Source of the DNA: a virus
Lineage: Duplodnaviria; Heunggongvirae; Uroviricota; Caudoviricetes
Virus record (IMG/VR): IMGVR_UViG_2724679539_000004
Reading direction: 5' to 3' (one strand)
DNA: 37,547 nt
Shown one piece after another: positions 1-35,576 of this stretch (within the stretch, counting starts at the first letter, position 1; each line of letters begins with the position of its first letter). Position numbers and translations under genes: made by a program. The notes under the pieces are model-generated. The model ran no database searches, was not told the origin of the DNA, and worked only from the letters and a program-made list of their open reading frames with translations.

Positions 1-1020
1 TTAATCCCCCGTGGACACTGCGTGGACACTCACGCCACCTTTCAGCGGATTAAGGGCCACCGCATCCTGCAGGTAATCCGGTGCAAAATGTGCATATGCC
101 ATTGTTTGCTGAATGGTTGCGTGGCCAAGAATCTTCTGAAGCGCAATAATGTTTCCTCCGTTCATCACAAAATGGCTGGCGAACGTATGCCGCAGCACAT
201 GTGCAGCCTGGCCTTTTGGCAAATCGGGCTTAACTCTTTTCAGCGCCAAGCAGAATTCCCGGTACTTCACCTCAAACAAGCCGCCTGTTTCTCTGGTTTT
301 GATCGCCTCACAAACTGCCTGCGAAATTGGCACTGTTCTCTTTCGGCCATTTTTGGTTTCAAGAAACGTTACACGGTTATGAACTATCTGTTCACCACGA
401 AGCTTACTGGCTTCACTCCAGCGCGCCCCCGTGCTTAAACACAAAAGCGCAACACGCCAGTAATCGCCCTCCAGTGTATCGAGCAATAACGCCACTTCCT
501 TCTGGGACAGGAAAGCCATTTCTCGTGGAGATACATAAAGAATAGAAATTCCCCTTACCGGATGTTCTGCATCCCAGAGGCCTATTTTCTTCAGTACGGT
601 AAACATTCCGGATAACCGATTCATGTATCTGTTAGCAGATGACGGTTTCAATCCATCAGCTATCTTTTGAGAACGCCACGCGATAATTTTTAGCTTATCA
701 AGATCCACAGCCTGCATATCAGCGCCAAGCTCATTGATTATGTTGCGCAGTTGTTTTCGGTCTTCTTCCGCCTTACGCCTGTGCTGGCCGTGATACATCC
801 ACCACAACTCAAGCAAATCATTTAGCGTTCGACGATCACGGTAGCCCTGTATATATTCCCGCTTTTCAGCGTTCGCCATGATGTAGCGTTCAGTGGCCAC
901 CGCTACCGATTTTTTGTCAAATACCTTACGCACGCGCTTTCCCTTGCGTCCGTTCGGCCTGATGTCCAGCAAATAACGACCATCTTCGAGCTTCTTAATC
1001 GACATTGCGAAGCCCTCCAA
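1..1020 (-). CDS. int: Tyrosine integrase (P2 Int-like)
   Basis: 339 aa; C-terminal catalytic region HVLRHTFASHFVMNGGNIIALQKILGHATIQQTMAYAHF typical of phage tyrosine recombinases; adjacent to C repressor as in P2. Confidence 0.9.
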   Translation of the reverse strand: MEGFAMSIKKLEDGRYLLDIRPNGRKGKRVRKVFDKKSVAVATERYIMANAEKREYIQGYRDRRTLNDLLELWWMYHGQHRRKAEEDRKQLRNIINELGADMQAVDLDKLKIIAWRSQKIADGLKPSSANRYMNRLSGMFTVLKKIGLWDAEHPVRGISILYVSPREMAFLSQKEVALLLDTLEGDYWRVALLCLSTGARWSEASKLRGEQIVHNRVTFLETKNGRKRTVPISQAVCEAIKTRETGGLFEVKYREFCLALKRVKPDLPKGQAAHVLRHTFASHFVMNGGNIIALQKILGHATIQQTMAYAHFAPDYLQDAVALNPLKGGVSVHAVSTGD

Positions 1021-1101: not shown

Positions 1102-1422
1102 TCAGCGGGATAATTTTTGGATTGTTTCGGTTGAAACACGATCTCCCTCCGAATTGCAGGAACCATCAAGAGAGAGAGCCGGAGAAATTTGCCCAACCTC
1201 CGGCATCGTTTCATCTGTTGATAACCAATAAGCATATTTCTTAAATTTAGGGTGTTTCGTAACCTTAAGTAAGGCACCCTCTGTTACTTGCTTCCCCCTC
1301 ACCTCATAGTTAGTTACCGTCCCATAAGGCAGCCCAACACAATCCGCAAACTCCTGGCGGGTCATACCTTCTGCTTCACGAATCAGGCGAAATTTTTCAC
1401 CCATGCTTGACAAAGATGCCAT
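1102..1422 (-). CDS. Immunity repressor (P2 C / CI-like, HTH)
   Basis: HTH segment MTRQEFADCVGLPYGTVTNYE; divergent from cox; start uncertain (in-frame ATGs at 1455, 1440, 1431, 1422; GGAGGA lies 10 nt upstream of 1422). Confidence 0.7.
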   Translation of the reverse strand: MASLSSMGEKFRLIREAEGMTRQEFADCVGLPYGTVTNYEVRGKQVTEGALLKVTKHPKFKKYAYWLSTDETMPEVGQISPALSLDGSCNSEGDRVSTETIQKLSR

Positions 1423-1476
1423 ATCGGGCATATCCTCCATCGCAACATGCCACATCGGGCACAAACATAAAAACAC

Positions 1477-2939: not shown

Positions 2940-3182
2940 ATGGGCAAAGAATATAAAACACTCATCAACAAAGCACTTGAGCGTTTTTATTTTCGCTTAA
3001 GTGCATCAGGCTCTCATGCTGAACGTGCAGCCCGTGACTCATTGACCAGGGCAATCCGGAGTCTGTATGACGTGGCTTTTTACGCTGATGATCTGGATGC
3101 ACTTAACGAACTTTCCGAGCTAATCTGTGCCGCAGAATGCGGGGAACATATTGAACCGTATAAGCTGGGGAATATCGCATGA
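2940..3182 (+). CDS. Hypothetical early protein (80 aa)
   Basis: ORF in early operon. Confidence 0.5.
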   Translation: MGKEYKTLINKALERFYFRLSASGSHAERAARDSLTRAIRSLYDVAFYADDLDALNELSELICAAECGEHIEPYKLGNIA

Positions 3183-3292
3183 GTATATTTATCTCATGGC
3201 TTGTTCTGATTATTTCTGTGGCCTGCGCCATTGGGATTATGCGAATTATTCATTCAGTAAAAAAGATTGAACGCTTTTTCACTGGCGAATAA
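3179..3292 (+). CDS. Small membrane peptide (37 aa), hypothetical
   Basis: ATGA overlap with upstream stop; MSIFISWLVLIISVACAIGIMRIIHSVKKIERFFTGE, single TM helix. Confidence 0.3.
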   Translation: MSIFISWLVLIISVACAIGIMRIIHSVKKIERFFTGE

Positions 3293-3378
3293 CAGAGCAA
3301 ATAAAACCACAGGTTAAATAAGAAAATGTAAAAACAATCCGCATTCGCGGAGGTATTCGCATACGCCAAGGAGGCGTA

Positions 3379-3582
3379 ATGGCAATTAAGCATTTTCCTG
3401 TCGTTCGTTTTACCTCCAGAGGACGTGAATACGAAGTCGACGAACGCCTGATTACCACAATCGACAAACACCGTTCAGAAAAGGATGCACATCACATCTA
3501 TCTCACTGACGGCACTTACTTCTGCGCCACGAATGTGGTGCAGGTGAACCTTATCCGACAGGTACAGGAGTCACGCAGATGA
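3379..3582 (+). CDS. Hypothetical early protein (67 aa)
   Basis: ORF with aaggagg SD; overlaps next gene start by 4 nt. Confidence 0.5.
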   Translation: MAIKHFPVVRFTSRGREYEVDERLITTIDKHRSEKDAHHIYLTDGTYFCATNVVQVNLIRQVQESRR

Positions 3583-3824
3583 CCATTCTGGATTATATCG
3601 CTGCCAATCCGGGGTGTAGCGGTGGAGAAATCGCCGCAGCACTGAATACCCCAACCACAGCCATTAATGCGGAGTTACGCCGACTCTGGCGCAGCGGTTC
3701 AGTCATAAGAAAAGAGCGCAAAACAGGCGGTCGCTTTTCTTACCAGATAAACCCGATGCCGTTCGGGTGCGGCAATCCACTTACCAACATGTTTAACCAG
3801 CTACTGAAGGAAGCCAGAGCATGA
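3579..3824 (+). CDS. Small putative winged-helix DNA-binding protein
   Basis: 81 aa; GCSGGEIAAALNTPTTAINAELRRLWRSGSV resembles wHTH recognition region; ATGA coupled. Confidence 0.45.
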   Translation: MTILDYIAANPGCSGGEIAAALNTPTTAINAELRRLWRSGSVIRKERKTGGRFSYQINPMPFGCGNPLTNMFNQLLKEARA

Positions 3825-4120
3825 GCACCATCAACCACCAGAAGCTACGCGAACTGGCATTTGCCCTGCAACGAATGGCAACGCCTCAAAAATTACTGGC
3901 ATTTCGCGCAATGCTCTCGCCGTCTGCTGTGCTGGCACTGCTGGATCAGCTGGAGCACGCCAGAACCACGGCTCCTGCCATTCGCCTCACGCTCCATCAT
4001 GAAATCGCTGATTTCTGCGCAACGCTGGGGGCACCTGGCGAACCGGAAACGCCGGAAGCAATGCAGCAAGAGCTGCTGCAACGCATCGATAACGTTTTTG
4101 ATTTTTTTCTGAACCAGTAA
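3821..4120 (+). CDS. Hypothetical protein with Ea22/Ead-like N-terminal motif
   Basis: 99 aa; N-terminus MSTINHQKLRELA and LALLDQLE motif shared with the two paralogs at 9388 and 9930. Confidence 0.5.
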   Translation: MSTINHQKLRELAFALQRMATPQKLLAFRAMLSPSAVLALLDQLEHARTTAPAIRLTLHHEIADFCATLGAPGEPETPEAMQQELLQRIDNVFDFFLNQ

Positions 4121-4242
4121 GAAACCAGAACATGCACACACAAAAAAACCGCTTGCCATGCCTCAATCGGTCAGGTTACATTTCCGCTGCACCTCATAAA
4201 ACGGGTGCCGGGATTCTCAACCCGATACAGAGCAAAGCGCAT

Positions 4243-4263
4243 AACCGCGCAAGCGGTTTTTTT
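4243..4263 (+). terminator. Rho-independent terminator-like hairpin (ACCGC-GCAA-GCGGT + T7)
   Basis: GNRA-loop hairpin followed by TTTTTTT; perfect 15-bp inverted partner AAAAAAACCGCTTGC at 4142-4156. Confidence 0.5.
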
Positions 4264-4442
4264 GTGCGTACTGTATTGCCACGTCTTTTTCGCGTCAGAA
4301 TTATGGCGGGGCGTACGGGGCCGACTTCGGTCGGGCCGGATTCTTTGCTCTCCGGTGTTGAGAACCCTGTACGTCTCGCCACCCCGAGATTCTCAACTCT
4401 GGATGGTGAGTTATTTCTATCACCGAGCAAAGAGGCCACACC

Positions 4443-4673
4443 ATGGCAGACCGCAAACAGCACCGCGCTATCGCGGAGCGTCGTCACATCCAGACTGAAA
4501 TCAACCGCAGACTTTCCCGCGCATCACGCGTCGCGCAAATCATGCACATCAATATGCTGCATGAGCGCAGCCACGCACTATCAAACATTTATTCCGCCTC
4601 TGTTTTCAGCTATCTGGCGGATGATCTGCACGAGCTTCAACAGCTCATCCAGCAGCAAAACAAACTCCATTAA
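4443..4673 (+). CDS. Hypothetical protein (76 aa)
   Basis: ORF with aagagg SD 9 nt upstream; preferred over overlapping low-complexity 205-aa ORF. Confidence 0.45.
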   Translation: MADRKQHRAIAERRHIQTEINRRLSRASRVAQIMHINMLHERSHALSNIYSASVFSYLADDLHELQQLIQQQNKLH

Positions 4674-4745
4674 TTCCTGTTCCGGGCCTTTCCTGCACCT
4701 TGCGGCGGGAGGCCTTCGCACATCTGTAGTAAAGAGAATTGCAGC

Positions 4746-5135
4746 ATGATTGACGCTCATGACTTCACAAGATGGGTGCGCACACAGGACACCCGTCTGG
4801 CTCCCGTTCTTCAGGGGTTATTTGATCTCTACATCCGTGGTCGTGACAACAGAGCACGCACCACAAAACCGGAGAATGCAGACACCCTTTATTTCACAGT
4901 AGACGACTGCTACCGCGTGGACTTCACACCACACGGACTGGCGTTGCACTGCCTGACACCGCACGGCGAATCACTGCTGGCGTATTACGACTCCCCGGCC
5001 TCCGTATTTGCAGCAATGCTGGCGCATCGCACTGCTGGCGGGTGTGCCTCGCTGAGTGAATACACCGCTGAATTTAACCGCCTTTCCGCCCTCTTCTCGC
5101 AGGAGTGGCAGCGCGTGACGGGATACCAGCCATGA
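4746..5135 (+). CDS. Hypothetical protein (129 aa) translationally coupled to A
   Basis: Stop TGA overlaps ATG of A (ccATGAgt). Confidence 0.55.
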   Translation: MIDAHDFTRWVRTQDTRLAPVLQGLFDLYIRGRDNRARTTKPENADTLYFTVDDCYRVDFTPHGLALHCLTPHGESLLAYYDSPASVFAAMLAHRTAGGCASLSEYTAEFNRLSALFSQEWQRVTGYQP

Positions 5136-7972
5136 GTGCGTTTGCATGGAGCTGGAATGAACCACGACCAGCTATTGATCCGGCCAGATTTACGGAGCGC
5201 AGGCAGGAAACTGAAACCGACCTGCAACGCGCCATCCGTTACTACCTTGAGGCGGACAAAAGGGCACAGAAAGAACAGGAAGCGAAGGAAGAAGCCTTTT
5301 TCGCACAATCCGCCATGGGTAAAAAACTCATGGCATCCCTTGAGGAAGCCGGACAGCGTGAAAAGCTGGCACAGAGCATCATCAGTAAGCGCCGGGCAAC
5401 AGAACAAGACCCGGTAGCCCGTGCCTTTGCCACACTGAAGGCGCTTCCCGTTTATCTGCGAGAACCTCTGAGCCGCCACCTCTCTTTCCTGCGCAAGAAG
5501 CAGGAAGCCGATCGTCAGAAAGGCAAAAAGAGCTGGCAGGCGGAACGCTATGCACGCGGAACCCTGCGCAAAATATTCGAACGTCTGGACCGCACCGACA
5601 GCCGCTGGCTGACACCGGGTTATCGCTCCCTTGCCGGACGCGAACGCCTGGACGATTTGCTTTACCTGCCGCAGCTCAACAAACACCAGATACAGACGCT
5701 GGCCACCATGACAGCGGCGATGTTCAGCAGCACCTTCGAAAAACTCTGCGATGGCTTTGACGCGACTGATGGCGAACTGACCATGGATGTAACGCTGAAG
5801 GCGTATCAGATGCTGGCCCGCATGGCGTTACACCTGCACGCCATGCCTCCACATTATGACGCACTGACAACAGACAAAGACCGGAGGAACGAACCGGACA
5901 CGGAGCTGCTGCCGGGCGCAATCCTTCGCCTGACCTGTGCGGAATGGTGGAAACGCAAACTGTGGCTGTTACGTTGCGAGTGGAGAGAAGAACAACTCCG
6001 CGCCGCCTGTCTGGTTTCCAGAAAAACATCACCCTATCTGAGCCAGGACGCGTTAAGCGAGTTTCGCGCACAGCGCGAGAAAACACGCGATTTCCTGAAA
6101 AGTTTCATACTGGAAAACGAAGACGGGTTCACGATTGATCTCGAGACAGTGTATTACGCGGGAGTAAGTAACCCGGTTCACCGTAAGGCAGAAATGATGG
6201 CCACCATGAAGGGGCTGGAACTTCTGGCCGAAGCCCGTGGCGACAAAGCGGTGTTTCTGACTGTCACCTGCCCGTCAAAATACCACGCCACAACAGAGAA
6301 CGGTCATCCGAATCCCAAATGGAACGGGGCCACCATGCGCGACTCCAGCGATTACCTGGTTAACACGTTTTTTGCGGCGGTCCGCAAAAAACTGAACCGC
6401 GACGGCCTGCGCTGGTATGGCATCCGCACGGTGGAGCCTCACCATGACGGCACCGTGCACTGGCACATGATGGTCTTTGCTCATCCGGAAGAAATCGACA
6501 GCATCGTGGCCATCACCCGCGATATTGCCATTCAGGAAGACCGCCACGAGCTGGGCAATGATATTACTCCGCGCTTTAAGGTGGAGTATGTCGACGGCTC
6601 AAAAGGCACACCAACCAGCTACATCGCCACCTACATCGGAAAGAACCTGGACAGCCGCGCCGTGGATGGCATCGACCCAAAAACGGGCAAGCCACGCGTT
6701 GACCACGAAACCGGAAAATCAATGGCCGAGAGCGTGGAACGCGCCATCGGCTGGGCGCGCCTTCACCGGGTCCGCCAGTTCCAGTTCTTTGGCATTCCCT
6801 CCCGTCAGGTGTGGCGTGAACTCCGCCGCCTTGCCAGCCAGATGGCACGCAACCCGGAAGGCCCGCAACGGCTGAAGGATGACGCAATGGATGCGGTTCT
6901 TGCTGCCGCTGATGCCGGGTGTTTTGCCACCTACATTGAAAAACAGGGTGGCGTACTTGTTCCGCGCAAGGACTACCTGATTCGCACAGCCTACGACCTC
7001 GCAGATGAGCTGAACGATTACGGCGAACAGAGTGTACAGATTTACGGGATCTGGTCGCCACTCATCGGGGAATCCTCCCGTGTGTGCACGCACCCGGATA
7101 ACTGGAAGCTGGTAAGACGTAAACCGGAAGCGGAAGACAGCACCCACGAAAATGGTTTTGACCTTCAGGGCGGCCCTGCCGCCCCTTGGACTCGTGGCAA
7201 TAACTGTCCCCGTGCACAGGAAACGAACAACAACGGGACAGAACAGCCGGAAGAACGGCCAGCACCGTGGCCGCAGCTCCCTGACGGCGTTGAAGTGAAC
7301 GAATGGATGCGCTCACTGAAACGGCACGAACGCCGGGCGCTGATGCGTTCGCTTCGTGACAAACAGGCAAAAAACAGCAGTGATGAAATGCAGAGCTGGA
7401 CACAGAGCCGCAAACAGCAGCGGCCTTTGCCTGATAACCACGAGTTACTCGCTAAAGAATGGCGGGAGTCTGCTGAATCTCTCGGCCTGCATATCGGTGA
7501 ACAGCAGATGCAGCACCTGTTACGGGGCGGCAGCCTGTACGTTGACGACAGCATCATTGCACCGCAGGGGTTTGAAATTGTACGCAAACCGGATACACGC
7601 CCGGACAGCCGAATCACGCAGCTCTGGCAGCGCCTGAGCCGCAATCACGGCGTAAGCAGCACGGAGATCCGCCATAACCCGGTCGCCAGCTATCTGGAAC
7701 AGCTGGGGGCATCAGACCCCGAAGCCGCCGCACGCCTGGCATCCACACTTCAGCAGGACCAGAACACCATGAAAACCCCTGTTACCGTACTTTCTGACAT
7801 GCTGCGCGCCATCCGTGACGCAGAGCACGCACAGAGAATCAGTGAAACCACTGAACGCGCCAGCCGCAAAGCAGACCTGCTGCGGGGTGGCCTGACCAGC
7901 GGAAACAAAAAACAGACAGAAACGGGACTCACGAATCCCGTAAATGAGCAAAAAACGCGCAGCGATATATGA
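5132..7972 (+). CDS. A: Rolling-circle replication initiator endonuclease (P2 gpA-like, HUH)
   Basis: 946 aa; HUH motif HDGTVHWHMMVF; position after early genes as in P2; longer than P2 A (about 761 aa from memory). Confidence 0.9.
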   Translation: MSAFAWSWNEPRPAIDPARFTERRQETETDLQRAIRYYLEADKRAQKEQEAKEEAFFAQSAMGKKLMASLEEAGQREKLAQSIISKRRATEQDPVARAFATLKALPVYLREPLSRHLSFLRKKQEADRQKGKKSWQAERYARGTLRKIFERLDRTDSRWLTPGYRSLAGRERLDDLLYLPQLNKHQIQTLATMTAAMFSSTFEKLCDGFDATDGELTMDVTLKAYQMLARMALHLHAMPPHYDALTTDKDRRNEPDTELLPGAILRLTCAEWWKRKLWLLRCEWREEQLRAACLVSRKTSPYLSQDALSEFRAQREKTRDFLKSFILENEDGFTIDLETVYYAGVSNPVHRKAEMMATMKGLELLAEARGDKAVFLTVTCPSKYHATTENGHPNPKWNGATMRDSSDYLVNTFFAAVRKKLNRDGLRWYGIRTVEPHHDGTVHWHMMVFAHPEEIDSIVAITRDIAIQEDRHELGNDITPRFKVEYVDGSKGTPTSYIATYIGKNLDSRAVDGIDPKTGKPRVDHETGKSMAESVERAIGWARLHRVRQFQFFGIPSRQVWRELRRLASQMARNPEGPQRLKDDAMDAVLAAADAGCFATYIEKQGGVLVPRKDYLIRTAYDLADELNDYGEQSVQIYGIWSPLIGESSRVCTHPDNWKLVRRKPEAEDSTHENGFDLQGGPAAPWTRGNNCPRAQETNNNGTEQPEERPAPWPQLPDGVEVNEWMRSLKRHERRALMRSLRDKQAKNSSDEMQSWTQSRKQQRPLPDNHELLAKEWRESAESLGLHIGEQQMQHLLRGGSLYVDDSIIAPQGFEIVRKPDTRPDSRITQLWQRLSRNHGVSSTEIRHNPVASYLEQLGASDPEAAARLASTLQQDQNTMKTPVTVLSDMLRAIRDAEHAQRISETTERASRKADLLRGGLTSGNKKQTETGLTNPVNEQKTRSDI

Positions 7973-8014
7973 AGCGCGCACAAAACAGGCAAAAACGGGA
8001 TTTCAGAATCCCGT
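7922..8014. repeat. Two palindromic 20-bp iteron-like repeats flanking the A stop codon, upstream of parM
   Basis: ACGGGActcacgaaTCCCGT (7922-7941) and ACGGGATTtcagAATCCCGT (7995-8014) with shared flanks aaACGGGA...GAATCCCGTAAA. Confidence 0.5.
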
Positions 8015-8048
8015 AAACGATTAATTAATCAACATAAGGAAAAGCGAC

Positions 8049-9008
8049 ATGAAAATTTGTATCGACGACGGCTCCACCAACATCAAGCTGGCATGGACTG
8101 AGAACGGCGAACGCCGCAACGCCATCAGCCCGAACAGCTTCAAGTCGGAATGGTCTGCGCCGTTCGGTGGCACGCAGCCCGCGAACTACATGCTTGATGG
8201 CGTGCGCTATGGTTTTGATCCGGTCAGCGATCGCTTTGTCCAGACGACCGACACGCAATACCAATACAGCGATGTGAATGTCATTGCCATTCATCACGCG
8301 CTGGTCAAATCAGGCATCACGCCACAGGAGGTGGATGTGGTTGTCACCCTGCCACTGAGCGAGTATTTCGACACAAACGCACAGCCGGACATGGCCAACA
8401 TCAACCGCAAAAAAGCGAACGTTATGCGCCCGGTGGAGTACCAGAACGGCGAAGCATTCACTATCCGTAACGTGCGGGTTATGCCTGAATCCATTCCGGC
8501 TGGCTTTAAGGCACTGGCTGACATGAGTCCGTTTGAATCCCTGCTGATTGTGGATTTGGGCGGAACCACGCTGGATGTGGCAAAGGTTCAGGGGCAACTG
8601 GCAGGTATCAGCCAGGTGTTTTGCGATCCACACGTAGGCGTTTCTCTGATGGCCGATGCCGTACTGTCGGTGATGGCCACTAACGGTATGCGCACCAGTC
8701 ACCACATCGCCAATACCATTATCGAACATCGCCATGATGAAGCCTGGCTGCGCCAGCACATCCACAATGACGCGCATTACGCCAGCCTGATGGCGGTTAT
8801 TCGTGAAAAGGAAGAAACACTGAAACAACGCGTGATCCGCGCGCTGGCGGTTTTTTCGGGTTACGGGCGGGTGATGGTTGTCGGTGGCGGGGCGGAGATT
8901 GTGGCACCCGCTATCCGCGAAGCCTGCGGAGTTAATGCGACTTTCATCGCGGACGGGGTGCCACAGTTTGCTCTGGTTAATGGGCTGTACGCAATGGACA
9001 AGGAGTAA
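8049..9008 (+). CDS. parM: ParM/StbA-like actin-type segregation ATPase
   Basis: 319 aa; N-terminus MKICIDDGSTNIKLAW...ISPNSFKSEW and YQYSDVNVIAIHHAL closely parallel plasmid R1 ParM as recalled; LIVDLGGTTLDV and VMVVGGGAEIVAP actin-fold motifs. Confidence 0.8.
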   Translation: MKICIDDGSTNIKLAWTENGERRNAISPNSFKSEWSAPFGGTQPANYMLDGVRYGFDPVSDRFVQTTDTQYQYSDVNVIAIHHALVKSGITPQEVDVVVTLPLSEYFDTNAQPDMANINRKKANVMRPVEYQNGEAFTIRNVRVMPESIPAGFKALADMSPFESLLIVDLGGTTLDVAKVQGQLAGISQVFCDPHVGVSLMADAVLSVMATNGMRTSHHIANTIIEHRHDEAWLRQHIHNDAHYASLMAVIREKEETLKQRVIRALAVFSGYGRVMVVGGGAEIVAPAIREACGVNATFIADGVPQFALVNGLYAMDKE

Positions 9009-9012
9009 ACCA

Positions 9013-9324
9013 ATGACGACACCAACCAGACGGATAAGTTTCTATCTGAAGCCTGTGGCCGTCAAGAACGAAAGCGAAGCATGCGCCTGGCTGGACAGCC
9101 TTACACCAGAAGCCCGCAAAAGCGGCCAACGCGTGGCTTTTCTGGCCGGGCTGGCACTTCTGAAAATGAATCCAGCAGAGGCTTACCGACTGGCTGCATG
9201 GGCTGACGATGAGGCGTTATCAGTGACACAAACCAGGACAGAATGCCCCGCGTCACAGCCAGTATCAACCGCACAGATAACCAGTCAGATGGCCGGAAAT
9301 ATCCGGGCGTTATTTCCCGAATAA
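9013..9324 (+). CDS. parR: ParR/StbB-like centromere-binding adaptor
   Basis: 103 aa; RRISFYLKPVAV...AFLAGLALLKMNP...IRALFPE parallels R1 ParR as recalled; directly downstream of parM. Confidence 0.6.
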   Translation: MTTPTRRISFYLKPVAVKNESEACAWLDSLTPEARKSGQRVAFLAGLALLKMNPAEAYRLAAWADDEALSVTQTRTECPASQPVSTAQITSQMAGNIRALFPE

Positions 9325-9387
9325 CACAACATCAGGGCGCATCCGCCCTGATCTCCACCTCAGAACATAAACAAGGAGACCGACTTA

Positions 9388-9933
9388 ATGAGCGAAATCA
9401 ACTATCAGGCACTGCGTGAGTTAGCAAAACAGGCAACACAGGGCGAATGGGTCGCATTTATTTCGCCGGGCAAATACGGCACGTACGCCGTGCACACACC
9501 AGGAGATAATCATCACGGAGATATTGTCGACTGGCCTGGATTCGACGGACAGAAAAACGCAGAGAACAACGCTCGTTATATCGCAGCTTTCAACCCTGAA
9601 GTAGTGCAGGCGCTGTTGGATGAACGAGAAGCCCAAAGCAAACGCATTGCAGAGCTGGAGGCTAATTTCACGGTGCTGGCAGTGGAGAATGCCTCAATGA
9701 AGCTGTTTATCAGGGGCTGTTGCTATGTATTTGATGGAGAGCAGGATGAAATATCTGACGCGTATATCTGCGCAACAGACGGAGGAATGCCACAAACCCC
9801 AGCCACCGACGCTTTCCTGGCTGAAGTGCGGGCGCAGGGCGTGGAGATGTTTGCGGAGTGTGCATACACACTTGAACATCATGATCACGCAGTAGCTTTT
9901 GCCGCCGAGCTACGTAAAGGAGGCAGTCAGTGA
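9388..9933 (+). CDS. Ea22/Ead-like protein
   Basis: 181 aa; MSEINYQALRELAKQATQGEW N-terminus typical of Ead/Ea22 family; coiled-coil ALLDEREAQSKRIAELE. Confidence 0.6.
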   Translation: MSEINYQALRELAKQATQGEWVAFISPGKYGTYAVHTPGDNHHGDIVDWPGFDGQKNAENNARYIAAFNPEVVQALLDEREAQSKRIAELEANFTVLAVENASMKLFIRGCCYVFDGEQDEISDAYICATDGGMPQTPATDAFLAEVRAQGVEMFAECAYTLEHHDHAVAFAAELRKGGSQ

Positions 9934-10469
9934 GCAAAATTGACTATCAGGCACTACAAATGGCAGCAGAACGTGCAATTCCGGCAATGGAACGCCTGTT
10001 AATATTGCCAGTTGATGATGATTTGTTAAGCGAACAGGAACTTAAAGATTACGGTGTGGATATTGACGCGATCAACACCTTCAGACTTCTGGCTGGACCG
10101 GAAGACATGCTGGCACTGCTGGATGAACTGGAAATAGCAAAAAAGCGCATCGCTGAACTGGAAAAAATCGCCACTGACTATGCACTTAAATTCCAGAAAG
10201 CACAGGACGCATTAAAGTATGCCGCTTTGCCGCATAGCCGGACGGCGCAACAAACAAATAATCTTGCAGTATCGCTTCCGGACATAAGCGAATATTTCAT
10301 TAATGACGTATTTCAGCCCTTGCGATACGAGCGGGATGTTGAAAGAGCCATCATAAAGGCTGGCGGAAAAGCATTGTGGCAGGAGAAACACGAGGACAGA
10401 ACGCATCAGTCATGCGATGTAAATTGTGGATGGTTTAGCCCACTGACGACAGATAAAAATAACACCTGA
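9930..10469 (+). CDS. Ea22/Ead-like paralog
   Basis: 179 aa; MSKIDYQALQMAAERA and ALLDELEIAKKRIAELE; ATGA-type overlap with upstream paralog. Confidence 0.55.
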   Translation: MSKIDYQALQMAAERAIPAMERLLILPVDDDLLSEQELKDYGVDIDAINTFRLLAGPEDMLALLDELEIAKKRIAELEKIATDYALKFQKAQDALKYAALPHSRTAQQTNNLAVSLPDISEYFINDVFQPLRYERDVERAIIKAGGKALWQEKHEDRTHQSCDVNCGWFSPLTTDKNNT

Positions 10470-10959
10470 TCCCCCTCAAACCAGGGCGATAATCGCACAT
10501 CGCCCTGCTGCACAATAGTGCACAAATTTGCACAATTTTTTTGAACGAATTTTTGCCCTTCCAGCCCGCGTGGCGGCTGGATCCGTCAAGGATCCGTGCG
10601 TGCACAAAAAAACGCGCTTTTTCTGCGCGCAGGTGACGGGGGAACAGCCCGCGTTTCAGGGGGTAAATAGCATTCCCTGAGCGATGTCGCAGCGACACAA
10701 CAGAATGGCTGTATTTCTCACGCTGAGCGTGAAAAAGACGTAAGGGTTTTTGATTTGATGGGTTGAAAGGTAAGGCCGTCAAAATCGCACTGAGGCGGCG
10801 AGAACATACAGTCAACGCGGTGGGATTGCGTAAGAGTCTGACCGTCGATGGTGGCGATAAACTGGAAGGCGTCGTGAAATTATCTGATTGATACAGGAGC
10901 TGGAGAGTCGGGGCATAAATTTTTTATGCCCCGGCGAAGCAGCAGACAAGCGAAGCGCG
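10470..10959. other. cos-containing region between cargo and Q (exact cohesive-end site not identified)
   Basis: Position equivalent to P2 cos; GC-rich elements (gcgtggcggctgg, ggtgacgggggaacagc) resemble but do not match P2/186 cos as recalled. Confidence 0.3.
10910..10932. terminator. Bidirectional hairpin terminator downstream of Q
   Basis: GGGGCATAAA-ttt-TTTATGCCCC perfect palindrome just 3' of Q. Confidence 0.5.
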
Positions 10960-12006
10960 TCAGGCTGTGGGCTGGGTGTCTAACAGTGCGTAAGGGTTAA
11001 AGCGGATCACCTCTTCGCCCAGCCAGTCATTGATGTGCTTCATGGCCTCCATGACGGGCATCAGCTCGTTAATTGCGTAAACCCGCGCGGCCTTCTCCAC
11101 ATCACCAAACGCACTTTTTTCACCCGGCATCGCCCCCATCAGTTGCGGCGGAACGCGGTGCGCAGCCAGCACATCATCACGGGATGCCGCCTTAACATTC
11201 ATGAACTCATCCTTTGCAGTGATCTGCTGGAACGGCAAAATTTGCACCCCCTCTTTGCCCCCGTTGGGCGCATGAATGAGCACGTTTTTAAACGCACCAC
11301 CACCACGTGCCCCCTGTAGCGTTTCTTTCAGGGAGTCCATGCTTTCGCGGTTTACCTGCGCTGCACCGATGTAGATGATGCACCCGGCGTGGGATCCGTT
11401 GTCGTAATACAGTTTTCTGAACATGTCCGCCGAATGAGACAGGCTGGCCGAGAGTAATGCGCCGAGATATTCCGGCATGCCGTAGATTTCCTGGTTAATG
11501 TCAGGATTCATCAGGTGGCACACTTTGCCAGGGCGAAACTGAAACGCATCCTTGCCATCCTGCACATACCACCATGATTCAAGATCGCTTCCGCGTCGCA
11601 TGTATTTCGCCAGTGCGTGCCGTAATTTAAGCGGTTCGCCGAGCATATTGCTTCGAAGCTCAAGGAATGCGTTACCGAACACAAACCAGTCCAGCGCCAG
11701 CGCCGAGAAATCCTGCCGGGAAAGCAGCGGGTGCGGGATGTAGCAGCCGAGTAATACATTGCGCTTAAAGTAAAGCGCAGACTGATGCCAGGACGTTTGC
11801 CGGGCAGCTCTTGCCAGACCGTACCAGTCTACCGGGGTTTCATACCACCGCCCGTTATCAGCACAGTACATATTGTCCAGCAGATCATGCCCGGTCAGGC
11901 GATAAGGACCATCAAATGTGAATGCACTGAGCGATGATTCTTTCCTGAGCGCATCAGCGAGATCAATGCGTGAACTCATGCGCACTTTTTTATTTTTTCT
12001 GCTCAT
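10960..12006 (-). CDS. Q: Portal protein (P2 gpQ-like)
   Basis: 348 aa; size/position match P2 Q; ATGA overlap with P stop. Confidence 0.85.
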   Translation of the reverse strand: MSRKNKKVRMSSRIDLADALRKESSLSAFTFDGPYRLTGHDLLDNMYCADNGRWYETPVDWYGLARAARQTSWHQSALYFKRNVLLGCYIPHPLLSRQDFSALALDWFVFGNAFLELRSNMLGEPLKLRHALAKYMRRGSDLESWWYVQDGKDAFQFRPGKVCHLMNPDINQEIYGMPEYLGALLSASLSHSADMFRKLYYDNGSHAGCIIYIGAAQVNRESMDSLKETLQGARGGGAFKNVLIHAPNGGKEGVQILPFQQITAKDEFMNVKAASRDDVLAAHRVPPQLMGAMPGEKSAFGDVEKAARVYAINELMPVMEAMKHINDWLGEEVIRFNPYALLDTQPTA

Positions 12007-22245: not shown

Positions 22246-23912
22246 CAGTGAAATACTACGCCATTCTGACTAATCAGGGCGCGGCACGACTGGCTAACGC
22301 GACGATGCTCGGCAGTAAGCTGAATCTGACGCAAATGGCCGTTGGTGATGCAAATGGTGTGTTACCAACACCAGACCCTGCACAAACAAAACTGATTAAC
22401 CAGAAACGCATTGCACCGCTGAATCTTCTGAGTGTTGACCCTAACAATCAGAGCCAGATTATTGCGGAACAAATCATCCCTGAAAACGAGGGAGGATTCT
22501 GGATCCGTGAGATTGGTCTTTATGATGATGAAGGCGTACTTATTGCGGTGGCAAACTGCCCGGAAACGTACAAACCGCAGTTGCAGGAAGGCAGTGGACG
22601 CACCCAGACTATCCGCATGATTCTGGTTGTCACGAACACCGAAGCCATCACGCTGAAAATCGACCCGTCTGTGGTTCTGGCAACCCGCAAATATGTGGAT
22701 GATAAAATCTCAGAGCACGAACAGTCACGACGTCACCCGGACGCCTCGCTGACCGTAAAAGGTTTTACTCAGTTAAGCAGTGCAATTAACAGTGAATCAG
22801 AAACACTGGCCGCAACACCGAAAGCGGTTAAGGCTGCATATGACCTGGCTAACGGGAAATATACCGCCCAGAACGCCACCACTACACAAAAAGGGATTGT
22901 TCAGCTCAGTAGCGCCACGAACAGCACGTCTGAAACGCTGGCAGCGACACCAAAAGCTGTTAAGGCGGTAATGAATGAAACGAAAAAGAAAGCACCATTA
23001 AACAGCCCGGCACTGACCGGAACGCCAACAACACCAACGGCGGCACAGGGGACTAATAGTACCCAGATCGCAAGCACGGCTTTCGTTATGGCCGCGATTG
23101 CCGCACTTGTAGATTCGTCACCTGATGCACTGAACACGCTGAACGAACTGGCTGCGGCGCTGGGCAATGACCCGAATTTTGCGACCACCATGACTAACGC
23201 GCTTGCGGGTAAGCAACCGAAGGATGCCACCCTGACGGCGCTGGCGGAGCTTGCCACATCAGCAGATAAACTCCCATATTTTACAGGGGCAGATCGTGCC
23301 GCGTTAACCGCGTTGACAAGTGTTGGACGTGCCATTCTTGGCAAAACCAGCACTCAGGGAGTTCTTGATTACCTTGGTTTGGGGGAAGGCTCTGCGTTGC
23401 CCGTTGGTGTACCCGTTCCGTGGCCCTCAGCTACACCGCCAACGGGCTGGCTGAAATGTAACGGCGCAGCATTTTCTTCTGAAGATTACCCCAAACTGGC
23501 ACAGGCTTACCCCGCGAATAAATTACCGGATCTACGGGGTGAATTTATCCGTGGCTGGGATGATGGACGTGGCTTGGATGCTGGGCGTGCCTTGCTAAGT
23601 CTTCAGGATGACTCCTTTGAAGCGCACAGGCATGAGTCCTTTTTTTATGCGGGTATTTCACGTAATGAAACACCATTAAAAAATCTTCCAAGTTCAGACG
23701 AGATGCTGACTTTAAGTTCCACAACTAATGCCTTGTCCCCGGACAGTATTGATGCCACCAACTCGTTAATTGGTAATGACGATTACAACTGTCTTATCGA
23801 AGGGAATAAAAATAACAAACGAACAGCGACAGGACTGAGTACCAGTATTGTCGGCACAGCAGAAACACGCCCCCGCAACGTTGCATTCAATTACATCGTA
23901 AGAGCCGCATGA
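22242..23912 (+). CDS. H: Tail fibre protein H (constant N-terminal part fused to cassette 1)
   Basis: 556 aa; N-terminus MTVKYYAILTNQGAARLANA typical of P2 H/Mu S fibres; C-terminal 179 aa is the first of six cassettes. Confidence 0.85.
   Translation: MTVKYYAILTNQGAARLANATMLGSKLNLTQMAVGDANGVLPTPDPAQTKLINQKRIAPLNLLSVDPNNQSQIIAEQIIPENEGGFWIREIGLYDDEGVLIAVANCPETYKPQLQEGSGRTQTIRMILVVTNTEAITLKIDPSVVLATRKYVDDKISEHEQSRRHPDASLTVKGFTQLSSAINSESETLAATPKAVKAAYDLANGKYTAQNATTTQKGIVQLSSATNSTSETLAATPKAVKAVMNETKKKAPLNSPALTGTPTTPTAAQGTNSTQIASTAFVMAAIAALVDSSPDALNTLNELAAALGNDPNFATTMTNALAGKQPKDATLTALAELATSADKLPYFTGADRAALTALTSVGRAILGKTSTQGVLDYLGLGEGSALPVGVPVPWPSATPPTGWLKCNGAAFSSEDYPKLAQAYPANKLPDLRGEFIRGWDDGRGLDAGRALLSLQDDSFEAHRHESFFYAGISRNETPLKNLPSSDEMLTLSSTTNALSPDSIDATNSLIGNDDYNCLIEGNKNNKRTATGLSTSIVGTAETRPRNVAFNYIVRAA
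23362..23387 (+). repeat. hix/gix-like 26-bp crossover site A (inside H)
   Basis: TTCTTGATTACC-TT-GGTTTGGGGGAA; left half nearly identical to hixL as recalled. Confidence 0.6.
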
Positions 23913-23931
23913 AAACGTTGGTTTGGGGGAA
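23906..23931 (+). repeat. hix/gix-like crossover site B
   Basis: CGCATGAAAACG-TT-GGTTTGGGGGAA. Confidence 0.6.
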
Positions 23932-24429
23932 GGCTCTGCGCTGCCCGTTGGTGTGCCCGTTCCATGGCCCTCAGCCACGCCGCCAACGGGGTGGCTGAAA
24001 TGTAACGGTGCAGCATTTTCTTCTGAAATGTACCCCAATCTGGCAAAAGCCTACCCCACCAATAAATTACCGGATTTACGCGGTGAATTTATCCGTGGCT
24101 GGGATGATGGGCGTGGTGTGGATGCGGGGAGAGCAATATTATCCGCTCAGGGCGATGCCATACGTAATATCTATGGTGAGTTCAGGACTGTAAACACCGA
24201 AAATTATTCAATATGGGAATCAGTAGGCTCGTTTAAGGGGGCCGTGGTGCCTTTGAACCCCTCAACGAACAATAGTTATTTCTCCTTAGTCAGAAGTATG
24301 GTGACAGAAAGGTCCGAGGGAGGTGTTTACCCAAAAGTGATAGGCCTTGATGCTTCAAGAATTGTTCCAACTGCAAACGAAAACCGTCCTCGTAACATTG
24401 CGTTTAATTACATCGTAAGGGCAGTATGA
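23920..24429 (+). CDS. Promoterless tail-fibre C-terminal cassette 2 (tail-collar-like domain)
   Basis: No ATG; conserved N-end GEGSALPVGVPVPWPSATPPTGWLKCNGAAFSS, RGEFIRGWDDGRG collar motif, conserved C-end RPRNIAFNYIVRA, divergent middle. Confidence 0.7.
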   Translation, partial: GLGEGSALPVGVPVPWPSATPPTGWLKCNGAAFSSEMYPNLAKAYPTNKLPDLRGEFIRGWDDGRGVDAGRAILSAQGDAIRNIYGEFRTVNTENYSIWESVGSFKGAVVPLNPSTNNSYFSLVRSMVTERSEGGVYPKVIGLDASRIVPTANENRPRNIAFNYIVRAV

Positions 24430-24448
24430 AAACGTTGGTTTGGGGGAA
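24423..24448 (+). repeat. hix/gix-like crossover site C
   Basis: AGTATGAAAACG-TT-GGTTTGGGGGAA. Confidence 0.6.
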
Positions 24449-24898
24449 GGCTCTGCACTGCCCGTTGGCGTGCCCGTTCCGTGGCCTTCAGCAACACCGC
24501 CAACGGGGTGGCTGAAATGTAACGGCGCAGCATTTTCTTCTGAAATGTACCCCAATCTGGCAAAGGCTTACCCAACGTTAAAATTACCTGATTTACGCGG
24601 TGAGTTTATCCGTGGTTGGGATGATGGGCGCGGGGTGGATGCGGGAAGGGGCATCTTAAGCATACAGGGGTGGTTAACAGGAAGTCATTATCATAATATT
24701 CGGTCATGGGACGCGTGGGATAACACGGTACTGGTGCCAAATGACAAAGGAGGGGATAGTCTGTTGTCGACAGATAACGCCGTCCGGCAAGGTGCAATTA
24801 ACGGTAGATTTACCAGTCAATACAGAACGGAATCCTCAGTGGGGAATGAAACCCGCCCACGCAATATTGCCTTCAATTATATTGTGAGAACCGCATAA
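24437..24898 (+). CDS. Promoterless tail-fibre C-terminal cassette 3
   Basis: Same conserved ends, distinct central segment. Confidence 0.7.
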   Translation, partial: GLGEGSALPVGVPVPWPSATPPTGWLKCNGAAFSSEMYPNLAKAYPTLKLPDLRGEFIRGWDDGRGVDAGRGILSIQGWLTGSHYHNIRSWDAWDNTVLVPNDKGGDSLLSTDNAVRQGAINGRFTSQYRTESSVGNETRPRNIAFNYIVRTA

Positions 24899-25509
24899 TG
24901 AATAACGCGATATTAAATGATGACCTTATTGCCGTACAGGCAGGAAACATCGTCGTTTATAACTATGATGGTGAGACACGGGAATATATTTCCGAATCAA
25001 CTGAATATCTTGCTGCGGGTGTCGGTATTCCGGCAAATTCCTGTTTAGATGCCCCGGGCGCACATAAAGCGGGCTATGCTATCCGCCGTTCGGAGAATTT
25101 AAATTCATGGGAGTATACGCCAGATCATCGTGGTGAAACCGTCTATAGCACTGACACGGGAAACACCGAAGAAATCACGACGCTGGGTGACTACCCGAAA
25201 AATACAACCACTATCGCCCCGTTAACACCATACGATAAATGGGATGGTGAAAAATGGGTGACAGATACTGAGGCACAACATGGTGCCGCAGTAGAAGCGG
25301 CAGAAACCAAGCGCCAGTCACTGGCTGATGCGGCAATGGCTTCCATAAGTCTGATTCAGTTGAAGTTGCAGGCCGGGCGGAAGTTGACGCAGGCAGAAAC
25401 CACCCGGCTTAACGCCGTGCTGGATTATATAGACGCACTGAACGCAATGGATATAAACATGGCACCAGATATCAACTGGCCGGAAATACCACTGGCAGCA
25501 GCCAGTTGA
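24898..25509 (+). CDS. Tail fibre assembly chaperone (P2 gpG / Mu U family)
   Basis: 203 aa; C-terminal DINWPEIP resembles Tfa-family C-termini; lies between forward and inverted cassettes. Confidence 0.75.
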   Translation: MNNAILNDDLIAVQAGNIVVYNYDGETREYISESTEYLAAGVGIPANSCLDAPGAHKAGYAIRRSENLNSWEYTPDHRGETVYSTDTGNTEEITTLGDYPKNTTTIAPLTPYDKWDGEKWVTDTEAQHGAAVEAAETKRQSLADAAMASISLIQLKLQAGRKLTQAETTRLNAVLDYIDALNAMDINMAPDINWPEIPLAAAS

Positions 25510-25515
25510 ATATAA

Positions 25516-25995
25516 CTAAGCCGCCCTCACGATATAGTTAAATGCAATATTGCGGGGGCGGGTTTCACTACCACCTGTGTTACCAATACTTCCTCGTGAA
25601 TGAAGCGTTGGTGATGGAATCAAACTCCCTCCTGTATTTGTGGCATCAAGCCCCCTGCCTTGTGTATATGTTTTTTTGAAAATCGTGGCCAACTCCCATT
25701 CATCCTTTGTGTCATATCCATCGTTAGCTACAACAATATGGCGGTGTTTTTCCAACATCCCGGTTTGAATGCTCAATAAAGCGCGTGCTGCATCAATTCC
25801 TCGCCCATCATCCCAGCCGCGAATAAATTCGCCCCGTAAATCCGGTAATTTATTGGCGGGGTAGGCTTTTGCCAGTTTGGGGTACATTTCAGAAGAAAAT
25901 GCTGCACCGTTACATTTCAGCCAGCCCGTTGGTGGTGTTGCTAAGGGCCACGGAACGGGCACACCAACGGGCAGTGCAGAGACTTCTCCTAAACC
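25516..25995 (-). CDS. Promoterless tail-fibre C-terminal cassette 4 (inverted)
   Basis: Same conserved ends on minus strand. Confidence 0.7.
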   Translation of the reverse strand, partial: GLGEVSALPVGVPVPWPLATPPTGWLKCNGAAFSSEMYPKLAKAYPANKLPDLRGEFIRGWDDGRGIDAARALLSIQTGMLEKHRHIVVANDGYDTKDEWELATIFKKTYTQGRGLDATNTGGSLIPSPTLHSRGSIGNTGGSETRPRNIAFNYIVRAA

Positions 25996-26009
25996 AACGT
26001 TTTCATGCG
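25984..26009 (-). repeat. hix/gix-like crossover site D (inverted)
   Basis: minus strand reads CGCATGAAAACG-TT-GGTTTAGGAGAA. Confidence 0.6.
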
Positions 26010-26509
26010 GCTCTTACGATGTAATTGAATGCAACGTTGCGAGGGCGAGTTTCTGTACCTACATTTCCACTAATTTCACCAAACCGTTTTACATTACGAG
26101 AGCTAATGGCTCGTAGTGAGGAAGGCACCTTTAAACCGGGTTCGTCTGTTTTAACTATTCCCCCGTCCCCGTATGTAGCCAGTATTCCAGGGTTTACTCC
26201 TTCCCGTGCACTTCCCGCGGCAAGTCCGCCCCCGGTCCATAATTCCATATAGTGTGCATGATCCAAAATTGTGTGTGGCTGCCAATTAAGCAAAGCGCGA
26301 CCAGCATCCACCCCGCGCCCATCATCCCAGCCGCGAATAAATTCTCCCCGTAAATCCGGTAATTTATTGGCGGGGTAGGCTTTTGCCAGTTTGGGGTACA
26401 TTTCAGAAGAAAATGCTGCGCCGTTACATTTCAACCACCCCGCTGGCAGCGTGGCTGAGGGCCATGGAACGGCCACACCAACAGGCAGCGCAGAGCCTTC
26501 CCCCAAACC
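26003..26509 (-). CDS. Promoterless tail-fibre C-terminal cassette 5 (inverted)
   Basis: Same conserved ends on minus strand. Confidence 0.7.
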   Translation of the reverse strand, partial: GLGEGSALPVGVAVPWPSATLPAGWLKCNGAAFSSEMYPKLAKAYPANKLPDLRGEFIRGWDDGRGVDAGRALLNWQPHTILDHAHYMELWTGGGLAAGSAREGVNPGILATYGDGGIVKTDEPGLKVPSSLRAISSRNVKRFGEISGNVGTETRPRNVAFNYIVRAA

Positions 26510-26523
26510 AACGTTTTCATGCT
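26498..26523 (-). repeat. hix/gix-like crossover site E (inverted)
   Basis: minus strand reads AGCATGAAAACG-TT-GGTTTGGGGGAA. Confidence 0.6.
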
Positions 26524-26948
26524 GCCCTTACGATGTAATTAAACGCAATATTACGAGGACGAATGGTTACATAATTAACCCCATCACCTCGTGAAGGCCC
26601 TGCAAATGAAAAACGGGAAAAGCCTGGTTGGTTAGAAACAATTTGGTCATAGTTATTGATTGAATGACCAGACCCAATGTCGAAATTACCTCCGTAATGA
26701 GAAAAACTTGTACCATCCTGCCCTGAAAGCAGGGTACGTCCCGCATCAATCCCGCGCCCATCATCCCAGCCACGGATAAATTCACCGCGTAAATCCGGTA
26801 ATTTATTGGTGGGATAAGCCCTTGCCAGTCTGGGATACATTTCAGAAGAAAATGCTGCACCGTTACATTTCAGCCAGCCCGTTGGTGGTGTTGCTGAGGA
26901 CCACGGAACGGGCACACCAACGGGCAGTGCAGAGCCTTCCCCCAAACC
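26517..26948 (-). CDS. Promoterless tail-fibre C-terminal cassette 6 (inverted)
   Basis: Same conserved ends on minus strand. Confidence 0.7.
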   Translation of the reverse strand, partial: GLGEGSALPVGVPVPWSSATPPTGWLKCNGAAFSSEMYPRLARAYPTNKLPDLRGEFIRGWDDGRGIDAGRTLLSGQDGTSFSHYGGNFDIGSGHSINNYDQIVSNQPGFSRFSFAGPSRGDGVNYVTIRPRNIAFNYIVRAA

Positions 26949-26962
26949 AACGTTTTCGTTTT
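26937..26962 (-). repeat. hix/gix-like crossover site F (inverted, next to invertase promoter)
   Basis: minus strand reads AAAACGAAAACG-TT-GGTTTGGGGGAA. Confidence 0.55.
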
Positions 26963-27015
26963 ATCCCTACCTATACCAACTATGTATTTTTCACGAAACA
27001 AAGAGGATGTTTTTT

Positions 27016-34536: not shown

Positions 34537-34797
34537 ATGTTCCGTTGTCCGCTTTGTGGCGCATCTGCCCGTATCCGCACCAGTCGTCCGGAAAATGATT
34601 CAAACACCGTGCGGCAAAAGTATTACCAGTGTAACAACCTGGAATGCGGCGTATGCTTCTCAACACTGGAAGCTTTCCATAAATTCACATCGAAACACGC
34701 CTCCGGCGTTCACTCATCAGAAGGTATCCCGTGGCATGAGCTGCCAGCTTCACACAGGGGAAACAATCAGATGAGTTTGCCTTTATCTCAGAATTAA
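34537..34797 (+). CDS. ogr: Ogr/Delta-type zinc-finger late transcription activator
   Basis: MFRCPLCGASARIRTSR...YYQCNNLECGVCF is a C4 zinc finger like P2 Ogr; 86 aa (P2 Ogr 72 aa). Confidence 0.8.
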   Translation: MFRCPLCGASARIRTSRPENDSNTVRQKYYQCNNLECGVCFSTLEAFHKFTSKHASGVHSSEGIPWHELPASHRGNNQMSLPLSQN

Positions 34798-34987: not shown

Positions 34988-35128
34988 ATGTCGCAAAAAT
35001 CGCTTACGGCCATCACGTTCTGCGTGACGGCAATCCTCATCATCTGGATGCTGCACGGTTCGCTGTGCGAAATACGGATGAGCTTCTGGGGAGCGGAGTT
35101 TGCGGCGTTCTTACAGTGTAAGCAGTAA
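34988..35128 (+). CDS. hok: Hok/Gef-family type I toxin
   Basis: 46 aa; N-terminal TM helix then SLCEIR...EFAAF signature of Hok family; SD aaggag; not in ORF track (<60 aa). Confidence 0.65.
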   Translation: MSQKSLTAITFCVTAILIIWMLHGSLCEIRMSFWGAEFAAFLQCKQ

Positions 35129-35334: not shown

Positions 35335-35378
35335 TTGTTATCATATCGGCAGCAGTAACCACACAAGAGGTGCCGCAA

Positions 35379-35576
35379 ATGACGCAAAATGTACGATGCA
35401 AAAATTGCAACAAACTACTTGCCCGCGCCTCATTTCACTACATTGAAATAAAATGTCCGCGCTGCAAAACACTTAACCAGATAACGAGAGCCATCGAGCA
35501 CCCCACACACATGAGGAGTTATGACCGTGGGGATCGCAATCCAGCACCAACCAGCACATACACCGGAACACACTAA
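35379..35576 (+). CDS. com: Com-like zinc-finger translational activator
   Basis: 65 aa; VRCKNCNKLL...HYIEIKCPRCKTLN matches phage Mu Com zinc finger as recalled; overlaps start of downstream methyltransferase. Confidence 0.7.
   Translation: MTQNVRCKNCNKLLARASFHYIEIKCPRCKTLNQITRAIEHPTHMRSYDRGDRNPAPTSTYTGTH

Follow-up and report, generated by a model that had tools for sequence, protein, structure and literature searches.

Why should a phage that integrates into the bacterial chromosome carry the machinery with which low-copy plasmids are segregated? The question is raised by two adjacent genes, parM and parR, in a 37,547-nucleotide stretch of viral DNA (IMG/VR record IMGVR_UViG_2724679539_000004; the whole stretch is called the window here), a P88-type prophage of the P2 family (genus Xuanwuvirus, Peduoviridae). 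The pair lies immediately 3' of the replication gene A. An earlier reading of these letters alone (the original prediction) had proposed a plasmid-type partition module carried as cargo where P2 has tin and old. The answer we reach, and hold to be probable, is that parMR belongs to a functional type II (ParMRC-type) segregation module which is a conserved, lineage-core part of P88-like phages and acts on extrachromosomal circles of the phage genome.

The module itself is already known, is annotated in places as 'plasmid segregation protein ParM' or 'partition protein', and has been published in passing. Rousset et al. 2022 analysed 18,150 gpA-gpQ loci, reported that about one in four P2-like phages carries a putative plasmid partitioning system and raised a plasmid lifestyle for such phages (PMC9122126), so the main idea of the original prediction was already in print. 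The module goes unmentioned in the P88 genome paper, and a literature search covering ParM in P2-like phages, Xuanwuvirus, P88 and prophage ParMRC found no functional study. To this record we add purifying selection on the genes, their linkage to one type of gene A, the structure and conservation of the upstream repeats, and the chromosomal residence of the module. The features on which the argument turns are the following.

5105-7972, plus strand: gene A, replication endonuclease of 955 amino acids (Pfam Phage_GPA, E 1.4e-130)
7906-7947: distal 42-nucleotide repeat with the palindrome ACGGGACTCACGAATCCCGT at 7922-7941; candidate ParR site (one half of a putative parC), inside the 3' end of gene A
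7979-8020: proximal 42-nucleotide repeat with the palindrome ACGGGATTTCAGAATCCCGT at 7995-8014; candidate ParR site or operator
8049-9008, plus strand: parM (Pfam StbA_N and ParM C-terminal domain)
9013-9324, plus strand: parR (Pfam Plasmid_stab_B)

The 319-residue product of parM matches Pfam StbA_N (E 1.8e-82, 275 bits against a curated cut-off of 24.6), the Pfam ParM C-terminal domain (E 6.3e-69, 231 bits, curated cut-off 27.4) and PHROG 691, 'partition protein', and it finds the crystal structures of plasmid R1 ParM in the PDB (1mwk, E 8e-93), with 4a62 also among the structure matches. Over its full length it is 47% identical to R1 ParM and keeps the positions of the ATPase: both phosphate loops (DxGxT), the N-terminal IDDGSTNIKL loop, PES (R1 E148), DLGGTTLD (R1 D170) and GGGAE. 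Judged from its sequence the protein is beyond reasonable doubt an actin-like segregation ATPase of the ParM/StbA family, inside which the original prediction had placed it. The gene is under strong purifying selection, the ratio of nonsynonymous to synonymous divergence (dN/dS) lying between 0.03 and 0.09 in five comparisons and remaining low even at a dS of 0.62 against the copy in Hafnia.

The start of parR is the ATG at 9013, 4 nucleotides past the parM stop, with a Shine-Dalgarno sequence (AAGGAG, 9000-9005) that overlaps the end of parM, a layout from which parR is predicted to be translationally coupled to parM. The TTG at 8878, where the mechanically called open reading frame (ORF) begins, was rejected as the start in favour of the ATG with its Shine-Dalgarno sequence and 4-nucleotide gap. 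The 103-residue product matches Pfam Plasmid_stab_B (E 2.1e-23, 82 bits, cut-off 25) and PHROG 2515 (E 3.4e-57), while a sequence search of the PDB returned no match even at E 10. It is an adaptor of the ParR/StbB family, with centromere binding as its predicted role, as the original prediction had also proposed. Alignment of 17 prophage alleles, down to 48% identity, reveals an invariant N-terminal segment (RRISFYLKP) with conserved helices behind it. Residues 66-92 form a hypervariable linker, and the C-terminal tail, NI(R/Q)xLFPE, is conserved in all 17 and aligns with the C-termini of plasmid ParR proteins, including KKNAMKLIN of R1. The C-terminus of R1 ParR is its ParM-binding peptide. 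The N-terminal pattern, RRISFYLKP and then two helices, fits a ribbon-helix-helix fold; an AlphaFold2 (AF2) monomer built from the 17-sequence alignment, of low confidence (mean predicted local distance difference test score, pLDDT, 57.7), models helices alone, at residues 20-29, 32-52, 54-61 and, after a disordered linker, 86-100 at the C-terminus.

For parR dN/dS is 0.2-0.4, and the replacements fall mostly in the linker. Two allele classes, about 52% identical, stand behind near-identical parM and upstream DNA, with a breakpoint near codon 15; both retain the N-terminal strand as well as the tail, as expected if the two alleles recognise the same DNA site and the same ParM. The copy in the window carries what we call allele 1. 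The gene is moreover mosaic, there being at least these two classes and many further intermediate alleles of 48-96% identity.

A repeat search found exactly two copies of the 42-nucleotide direct repeat, 73 bp apart from start to start, each containing a 20-bp palindrome of the form ACGGGA-n8-TCCCGT (arms CGGGA...TCCCG). The last codons of gene A contain the distal copy, and the proximal copy ends 34 bp before the parM ATG; the palindrome core pattern has no other occurrence in the window. Palindrome count alone is not significant, at least two matches being found in 26 of 100 shuffled sequences, and it is on adjacency to the genes, fixed spacing and conservation that we judge the repeats to be more than chance. 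Against the Hafnia homologue the distal repeat is 80% and the proximal repeat 86% identical, while the spacer (7948-7978) reaches 48%; E. coli (Escherichia coli), Cronobacter and Hafnia share the 73-bp spacing, and in the Hafnia locus the distal palindrome itself contains the stop codon of A. Conservation of the arms, with variable loop bases between them, is what a protein-bound palindrome would be expected to show. We regard the two conserved repeats as a candidate centromere, parC. The 'palindromic iterons' of the original prediction thus stand in so far as two palindromic repeats precede parM, and need correcting in that there are two copies only, the distal one inside gene A. A short pattern, AAAACRSG, of which 3 of 16 matches in the window cluster at 7952-7999, was considered as an additional iteron; the pattern was chosen post hoc and is not used as evidence. 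The remnant of a P2-like prophage in O157:H7 strain MB41-1, described below, carries 4 substitutions in its proximal palindrome (GCGGGATTTAAAAATCCTGT).

A crude scan of 7600-8050 found no sigma-70 consensus promoter and no terminator-like site on the plus strand, and because neither was seen between A and parM, parMR is probably co-transcribed with A. The scan did call hairpins at the palindromes as minus-strand terminators; this reading was rejected, as no minus-strand gene reads towards them and the plus strand has no T tract. Directly past the parR stop, at 9331-9352, lies a perfect hairpin with a 9-bp stem, ATCAGGGCG-catc-CGCCCTGAT, which likewise has no T tract on the plus strand and is called terminator-like on the minus strand only.

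The module is very widespread. It was found in 1308 of 5426 complete E. coli genomes (~24%), including those of O157:H7, ST131, O104:H4 and O127:H6, and it occurs at 95-98% nucleotide identity in phages P88, P884B11, 520873, PhiR44_2, Chuche and Citrobacter phage Shae_phiSM, among others. Across P88, other Xuanwuvirus phages and E. coli prophages its nucleotide identity is 95-100% in the same A-parM-parR-Q synteny; nothing essential distinguishes the window copy from these relatives apart from its allele 1 ParR and the rare Ead/Ea22-like cargo downstream. Both ORFs are intact across E. coli, Cronobacter and Hafnia, and ParM remains at least 94% identical even in the latter two genera. The nearest plasmid ParM proteins are at most 52% identical to it, and the StbA of phage-plasmid D6 is 48% identical; by these comparisons the prophage ParM is a distinct clade. 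One copy, in O157:H7 MB41-1, sits in a defective P2-like remnant (locus 2960-4500) that an IS3 element truncates right after parR.

The interval between A and the portal gene Q is a documented hotspot for anti-phage systems (Rousset 2022, PMC9122126), as the original prediction had pointed out, and parMR does lie in it, at the P2 tin/old position (A at 5105-7972, Q at 10960-12006). Its genes do not behave as exchangeable cargo, however. The 3' half of this type of A is present at 80% coverage or more in 1354 of the 5426 genomes and parMR in 1308, while the 1.6-kb stretch past parR (9325-10960) reaches that coverage in only 6. What follows parR differs in all the related loci that were fetched (among them P88, pC-Ec2-KPC, Cronobacter and Hafnia), but all loci with A on their contig show the order A-parM-parR-(variable)-Q, and one locus whose contig begins inside parM keeps parM-parR-(variable)-Q unchanged. 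Together with the recombination boundary inside parR, at about codon 15, the co-occurrence with A and the rarity of the following stretch indicate that the swappable slot begins within or after parR. Thus parMR is a lineage-core flank linked to A, and the claim that it is swappable cargo does not hold. PADLOC gave no match for ParM, ParR or either of the Ead/Ea22-like proteins downstream, which weakens the defence role suggested earlier; a reading of the module as a known defence system was dropped on this result.

Of the module's 1456 places in the complete E. coli genomes, 1454 are chromosomal and 2 are on plasmids. Among 72,556 plasmid records this type of ParR occurs in 7. The three that were examined are P88-like phage DNA, namely a prophage in an IncC plasmid, a linear phage fragment and a free circle; three others of the seven are very large replicons. 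The IncC case is pC-Ec2-KPC, a conjugative KPC plasmid of 227,878 bp in which a P88-like prophage with parMR is integrated, and such phages can therefore ride on plasmids. The free circle is pZ1323PEC0009-2 [GenBank:NZ_CP148288.1], a circular 34,461-bp 'plasmid' from a cat isolate of E. coli that is a complete P88-like genome closed at attP. A 4-kb stretch of it (23000-27000) is ~100% identical to chromosomal sequence in a related human isolate, Z1323HEC0067, and the circle could be either a true episome or DNA from spontaneous induction.

The explanation we favour, a segregation module acting on phage circles outside the chromosome, would work as follows. Dimers of ParR would bind both palindromes, the one closing gene A and the one preceding parM, through the N-terminal ribbon-helix-helix segment, and the ParR tail would capture the ends of ATP-dependent ParM filaments, whose growth would push apart or position the DNA molecules that bear the sites. 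Expression of parMR would come with the early replication operon, after infection or induction. The substrate would be the circular phage genome, whether as excised or not-yet-integrated circles or as the monomeric circles made by A-dependent replication, and the benefit would lie in better distribution or positioning of these circles, with less loss of the element at cell division or more efficient replication. In P2, A-dependent replication yields monomeric circles, and the C repressor shuts off the early operon in lysogens. For both reasons we favour a role in a transient phase over stable maintenance as a plasmid, and the near-absence of plasmid-state records (2 of 1456) supports that preference.

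Comparison with known systems shows what is ordinary in this module and what is not. The archetypal type II systems, parMRC of plasmids R1 and NR1/R100 (parA/stb), have the same order of cis site, parM and parR; the prophage ParM shares the catalytic residues of R1 ParM, and the prophage ParR shares a Pfam family, the N-terminal segment and the tail motif with R1 ParR. It differs in that the carrier is an integrating P2-family phage and not a low-copy plasmid, that the 103-residue ParR is only 27% identical to the 117-residue R1 protein and lacks a central segment, that parM has no consensus promoter of its own in our scan, and that two 20-bp palindromes 73 bp apart, the distal one inside gene A, stand in place of the R1 parC, which consists of ten 11-bp direct iterons. 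Closer in circumstance is srpMRC of the SXT/R391 integrative and conjugative elements (ICEs), also a type II actin-like partition system on a normally chromosomal element, which has been shown by experiment to stabilise the excised, replicating circular form and thus to act on a transient circle, its centromere comprising only four repeats of 13 bp, direct and inverted (Carraro et al. 2015, PMC4489591). The relationship of SrpM and SrpR to ParM and ParR is remote, SrpR having no homology to known ParR proteins (PMC4489591), and the carrier there is an ICE and not a phage; function is experimental in that case and is predicted from sequence here. In prophage CGP3 of Corynebacterium glutamicum, circular phage DNA, whose efficient replication depends on AlpA and AlpC, is tethered by them to actin-like filaments (Donovan et al. 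2015, PMC4446434). That system too belongs to an integrated prophage and pairs an actin-like filament protein with an adaptor that binds DNA at sites preceding the operon, and it is induced early after excision (PMC4446434); it has another actin-like family, another adaptor, another gene order and a Gram-positive host, whereas the P88-type pair is closely related to bona fide plasmid ParM and ParR. Phage-plasmid D6 (P1-like) with StbA, P1 with ParAB and N15 with SopAB are likewise temperate phages with plasmid-type partition, but they are kept as plasmids without chromosomal integration, whereas for P88-like phages more than 99% of occurrences are integrated copies.

Several observations weigh against a role on free circles. 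It is not obvious why a prophage in the chromosome should need partition, and nearly all copies are chromosomal. The O157:H7 remnant retains intact parM and parR though it is unable to make phage. There are two palindromes here against ten iterons in R1 parC, and a control plasmid locus has iteron-like repeats with a 10-bp offset, unlike the prophage architecture; given so few palindromes, the pair could be an autoregulatory operator only. The promoter and terminator scans being crude, a weak ParR-regulated promoter active in lysogens is possible. Finally, the low-confidence AF2 monomer of ParR shows no N-terminal strand and leaves residues 1-17 unstructured, the ribbon being one that forms only in a dimer.

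These points lend themselves to other explanations, of which the one already in the literature is a facultative plasmid lifestyle (PMC9122126), with parMRC and hok keeping P88-like phages as low-copy circles, for example in hosts without an attachment site. Such a lifestyle would account for pZ1323PEC0009-2, a complete phage genome deposited as a plasmid and nearly identical over 4 kb to the chromosome of a related isolate, and for the presence of a Hok/Gef protein, which gives the prophage homologues of both stability loci of R1, parMRC and hok. We nevertheless think it unlikely, because the copies are chromosomal with two exceptions, because the plasmid records hold one free phage-sized circle only and that circle could be replicating DNA from spontaneous induction, and because the integrase is intact and A lies, by P2 biology, in a C-repressed early operon, with no known replicon for the immune state. 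The long-lived episomal phase of the original prediction is accordingly not supported. A bolder proposition, that about a quarter of E. coli P2-family prophages are not purely integrative and that parMRC and hok maintain their replicating circles, in a facultative low-copy plasmid or carrier state, or else as actively positioned templates for lytic replication, seems to us unlikely as well. It is very unlikely, too, that the module is a moron whose ParR and ParM, expressed in the lysogen, interfere with incoming plasmids, phage-plasmids or related P2-like phages. Its place in an interval rich in defence systems (PMC9122126) and its intactness in the defective O157:H7 remnant fit such exclusion, but no PADLOC family matches, parMR follows the A type and not the variable cargo, ParM keeps its full ATPase and filament signature, and the contexts checked for this ParR type and its palindromes all proved to be P88-like phage DNA, which leaves no cross-reacting resident plasmids; incompatibility with resident plasmids, also proposed earlier, is for that reason and on the distance of the nearest plasmid ParM improbable.

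Two further readings dispense with free circles altogether. The module might act in cis on the integrated locus, or ParR might be mainly a transcriptional regulator, with segregation of circles irrelevant; examples would be to insulate the cargo slot from read-through out of A, to regulate such read-through, or to position a chromosomal region. The chromosomal location of almost all copies and the presence of two palindromes only, the proximal one operator-like at 34 bp from the parM ATG, are what this would lead one to expect. That the ATPase is under strong purifying selection and that ParR keeps its predicted ParM-binding tail argues instead for a working motor-adaptor pair, we found no precedent in the literature searched, and we give the idea a slender chance. 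That parMR is a non-functional relic of an ancient recombination between plasmid and phage, hitch-hiking with gene A, agrees with its tight linkage to A and with the lack of a demonstrated phenotype; with a dN/dS of 0.03-0.09 at dS values up to 0.62, intact ORFs across three genera and conserved upstream repeats we disfavour it strongly and consider it hardly credible.

If partitioning or positioning of circles by the P88-type module is the right reading, the principle known from SXT/R391 ICEs and from CGP3 would extend to tailed phages of Gram-negative bacteria, and the keeping of a plasmid gene set by an integrative phage would be explained; on the bolder proposition above, P88-like phages would offer a tractable Gram-negative model of actin-driven organisation of phage DNA. 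Independently of mechanism, roughly one E. coli genome in four, O157:H7, ST131 and O104:H4 strains among them, holds what its proteins mark as a genuine type II partition machine, in prophages that are almost always integrated, and the residual interest lies in the function of so widespread a module. There are practical consequences too: where an E. coli chromosome is annotated with a 'plasmid segregation protein ParM', the usual explanation is a P88-like prophage rather than an integrated plasmid, and those who mine the A-Q hotspot should take the variable slot in the P88-like lineage to begin after parR.

The remainder of the window bears out the description of the element as one with an integrase and a repressor. 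Three stretches of it (6400-7899, 7900-9400 and 9325-10960) match the chromosome of E. coli PK-F-10122 at 99-100% identity. A profile search of its ORFs and synteny with the annotated P88 record give the following further features.

4-1020, minus strand: integrase (profile search of window ORFs)
1102-1476, minus strand: helix-turn-helix repressor (C repressor)
1536-1823: Cox
9325-10959, plus strand: variable cargo slot from parR to Q, with two Ead/Ea22-like genes and a cos-proximal non-coding region; outside the partition module
9388-9933 and 9930-10469, plus strand: the two Ead/Ea22-like genes (Pfam Ead_Ea22, E 5e-25 and 1e-20)
10960-12006, minus strand: portal gene Q (synteny with the annotated P88 record)
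Minus strand: large terminase gene P (synteny with the annotated P88 record)

The P2 cos 19-mer was not found in the window, and cos is placed by synteny only. In the A protein the Phage_GPA domain covers residues 194-518 only of the 955; the long C-terminal extension has no domain match, and its last codons encode the distal palindrome. The tandem Ead/Ea22-like genes have overlapping stop and start codons, an arrangement present in only 6 of the 5426 genomes. The Hok/Gef-family ORF (46 aa, 34988-35128, plus strand; Pfam PF01848, E 4e-7, above cut-off) adjoins ogr (34537-34797), and the same hok gene is annotated in pZ1323PEC0009-2; Rfam at its gathering threshold called no Sok/hok RNA near it. 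In the early region Rfam places a C4 antisense RNA (4299-4386, 78.5 bits) and isrK (4189-4263, 63 bits), both overlapping an ORF at 4132-4749 whose Cronobacter homologue has Phage_ASH, so that this P2-like phage carries an antirepressor-control module resembling immI of P1/P7. At the right end of the prophage, an N6/N4 DNA methyltransferase gene (35521-36312, plus strand) begins inside an ORF for a Com-like zinc finger (35370-35576), an arrangement like that of com and mom in Mu.

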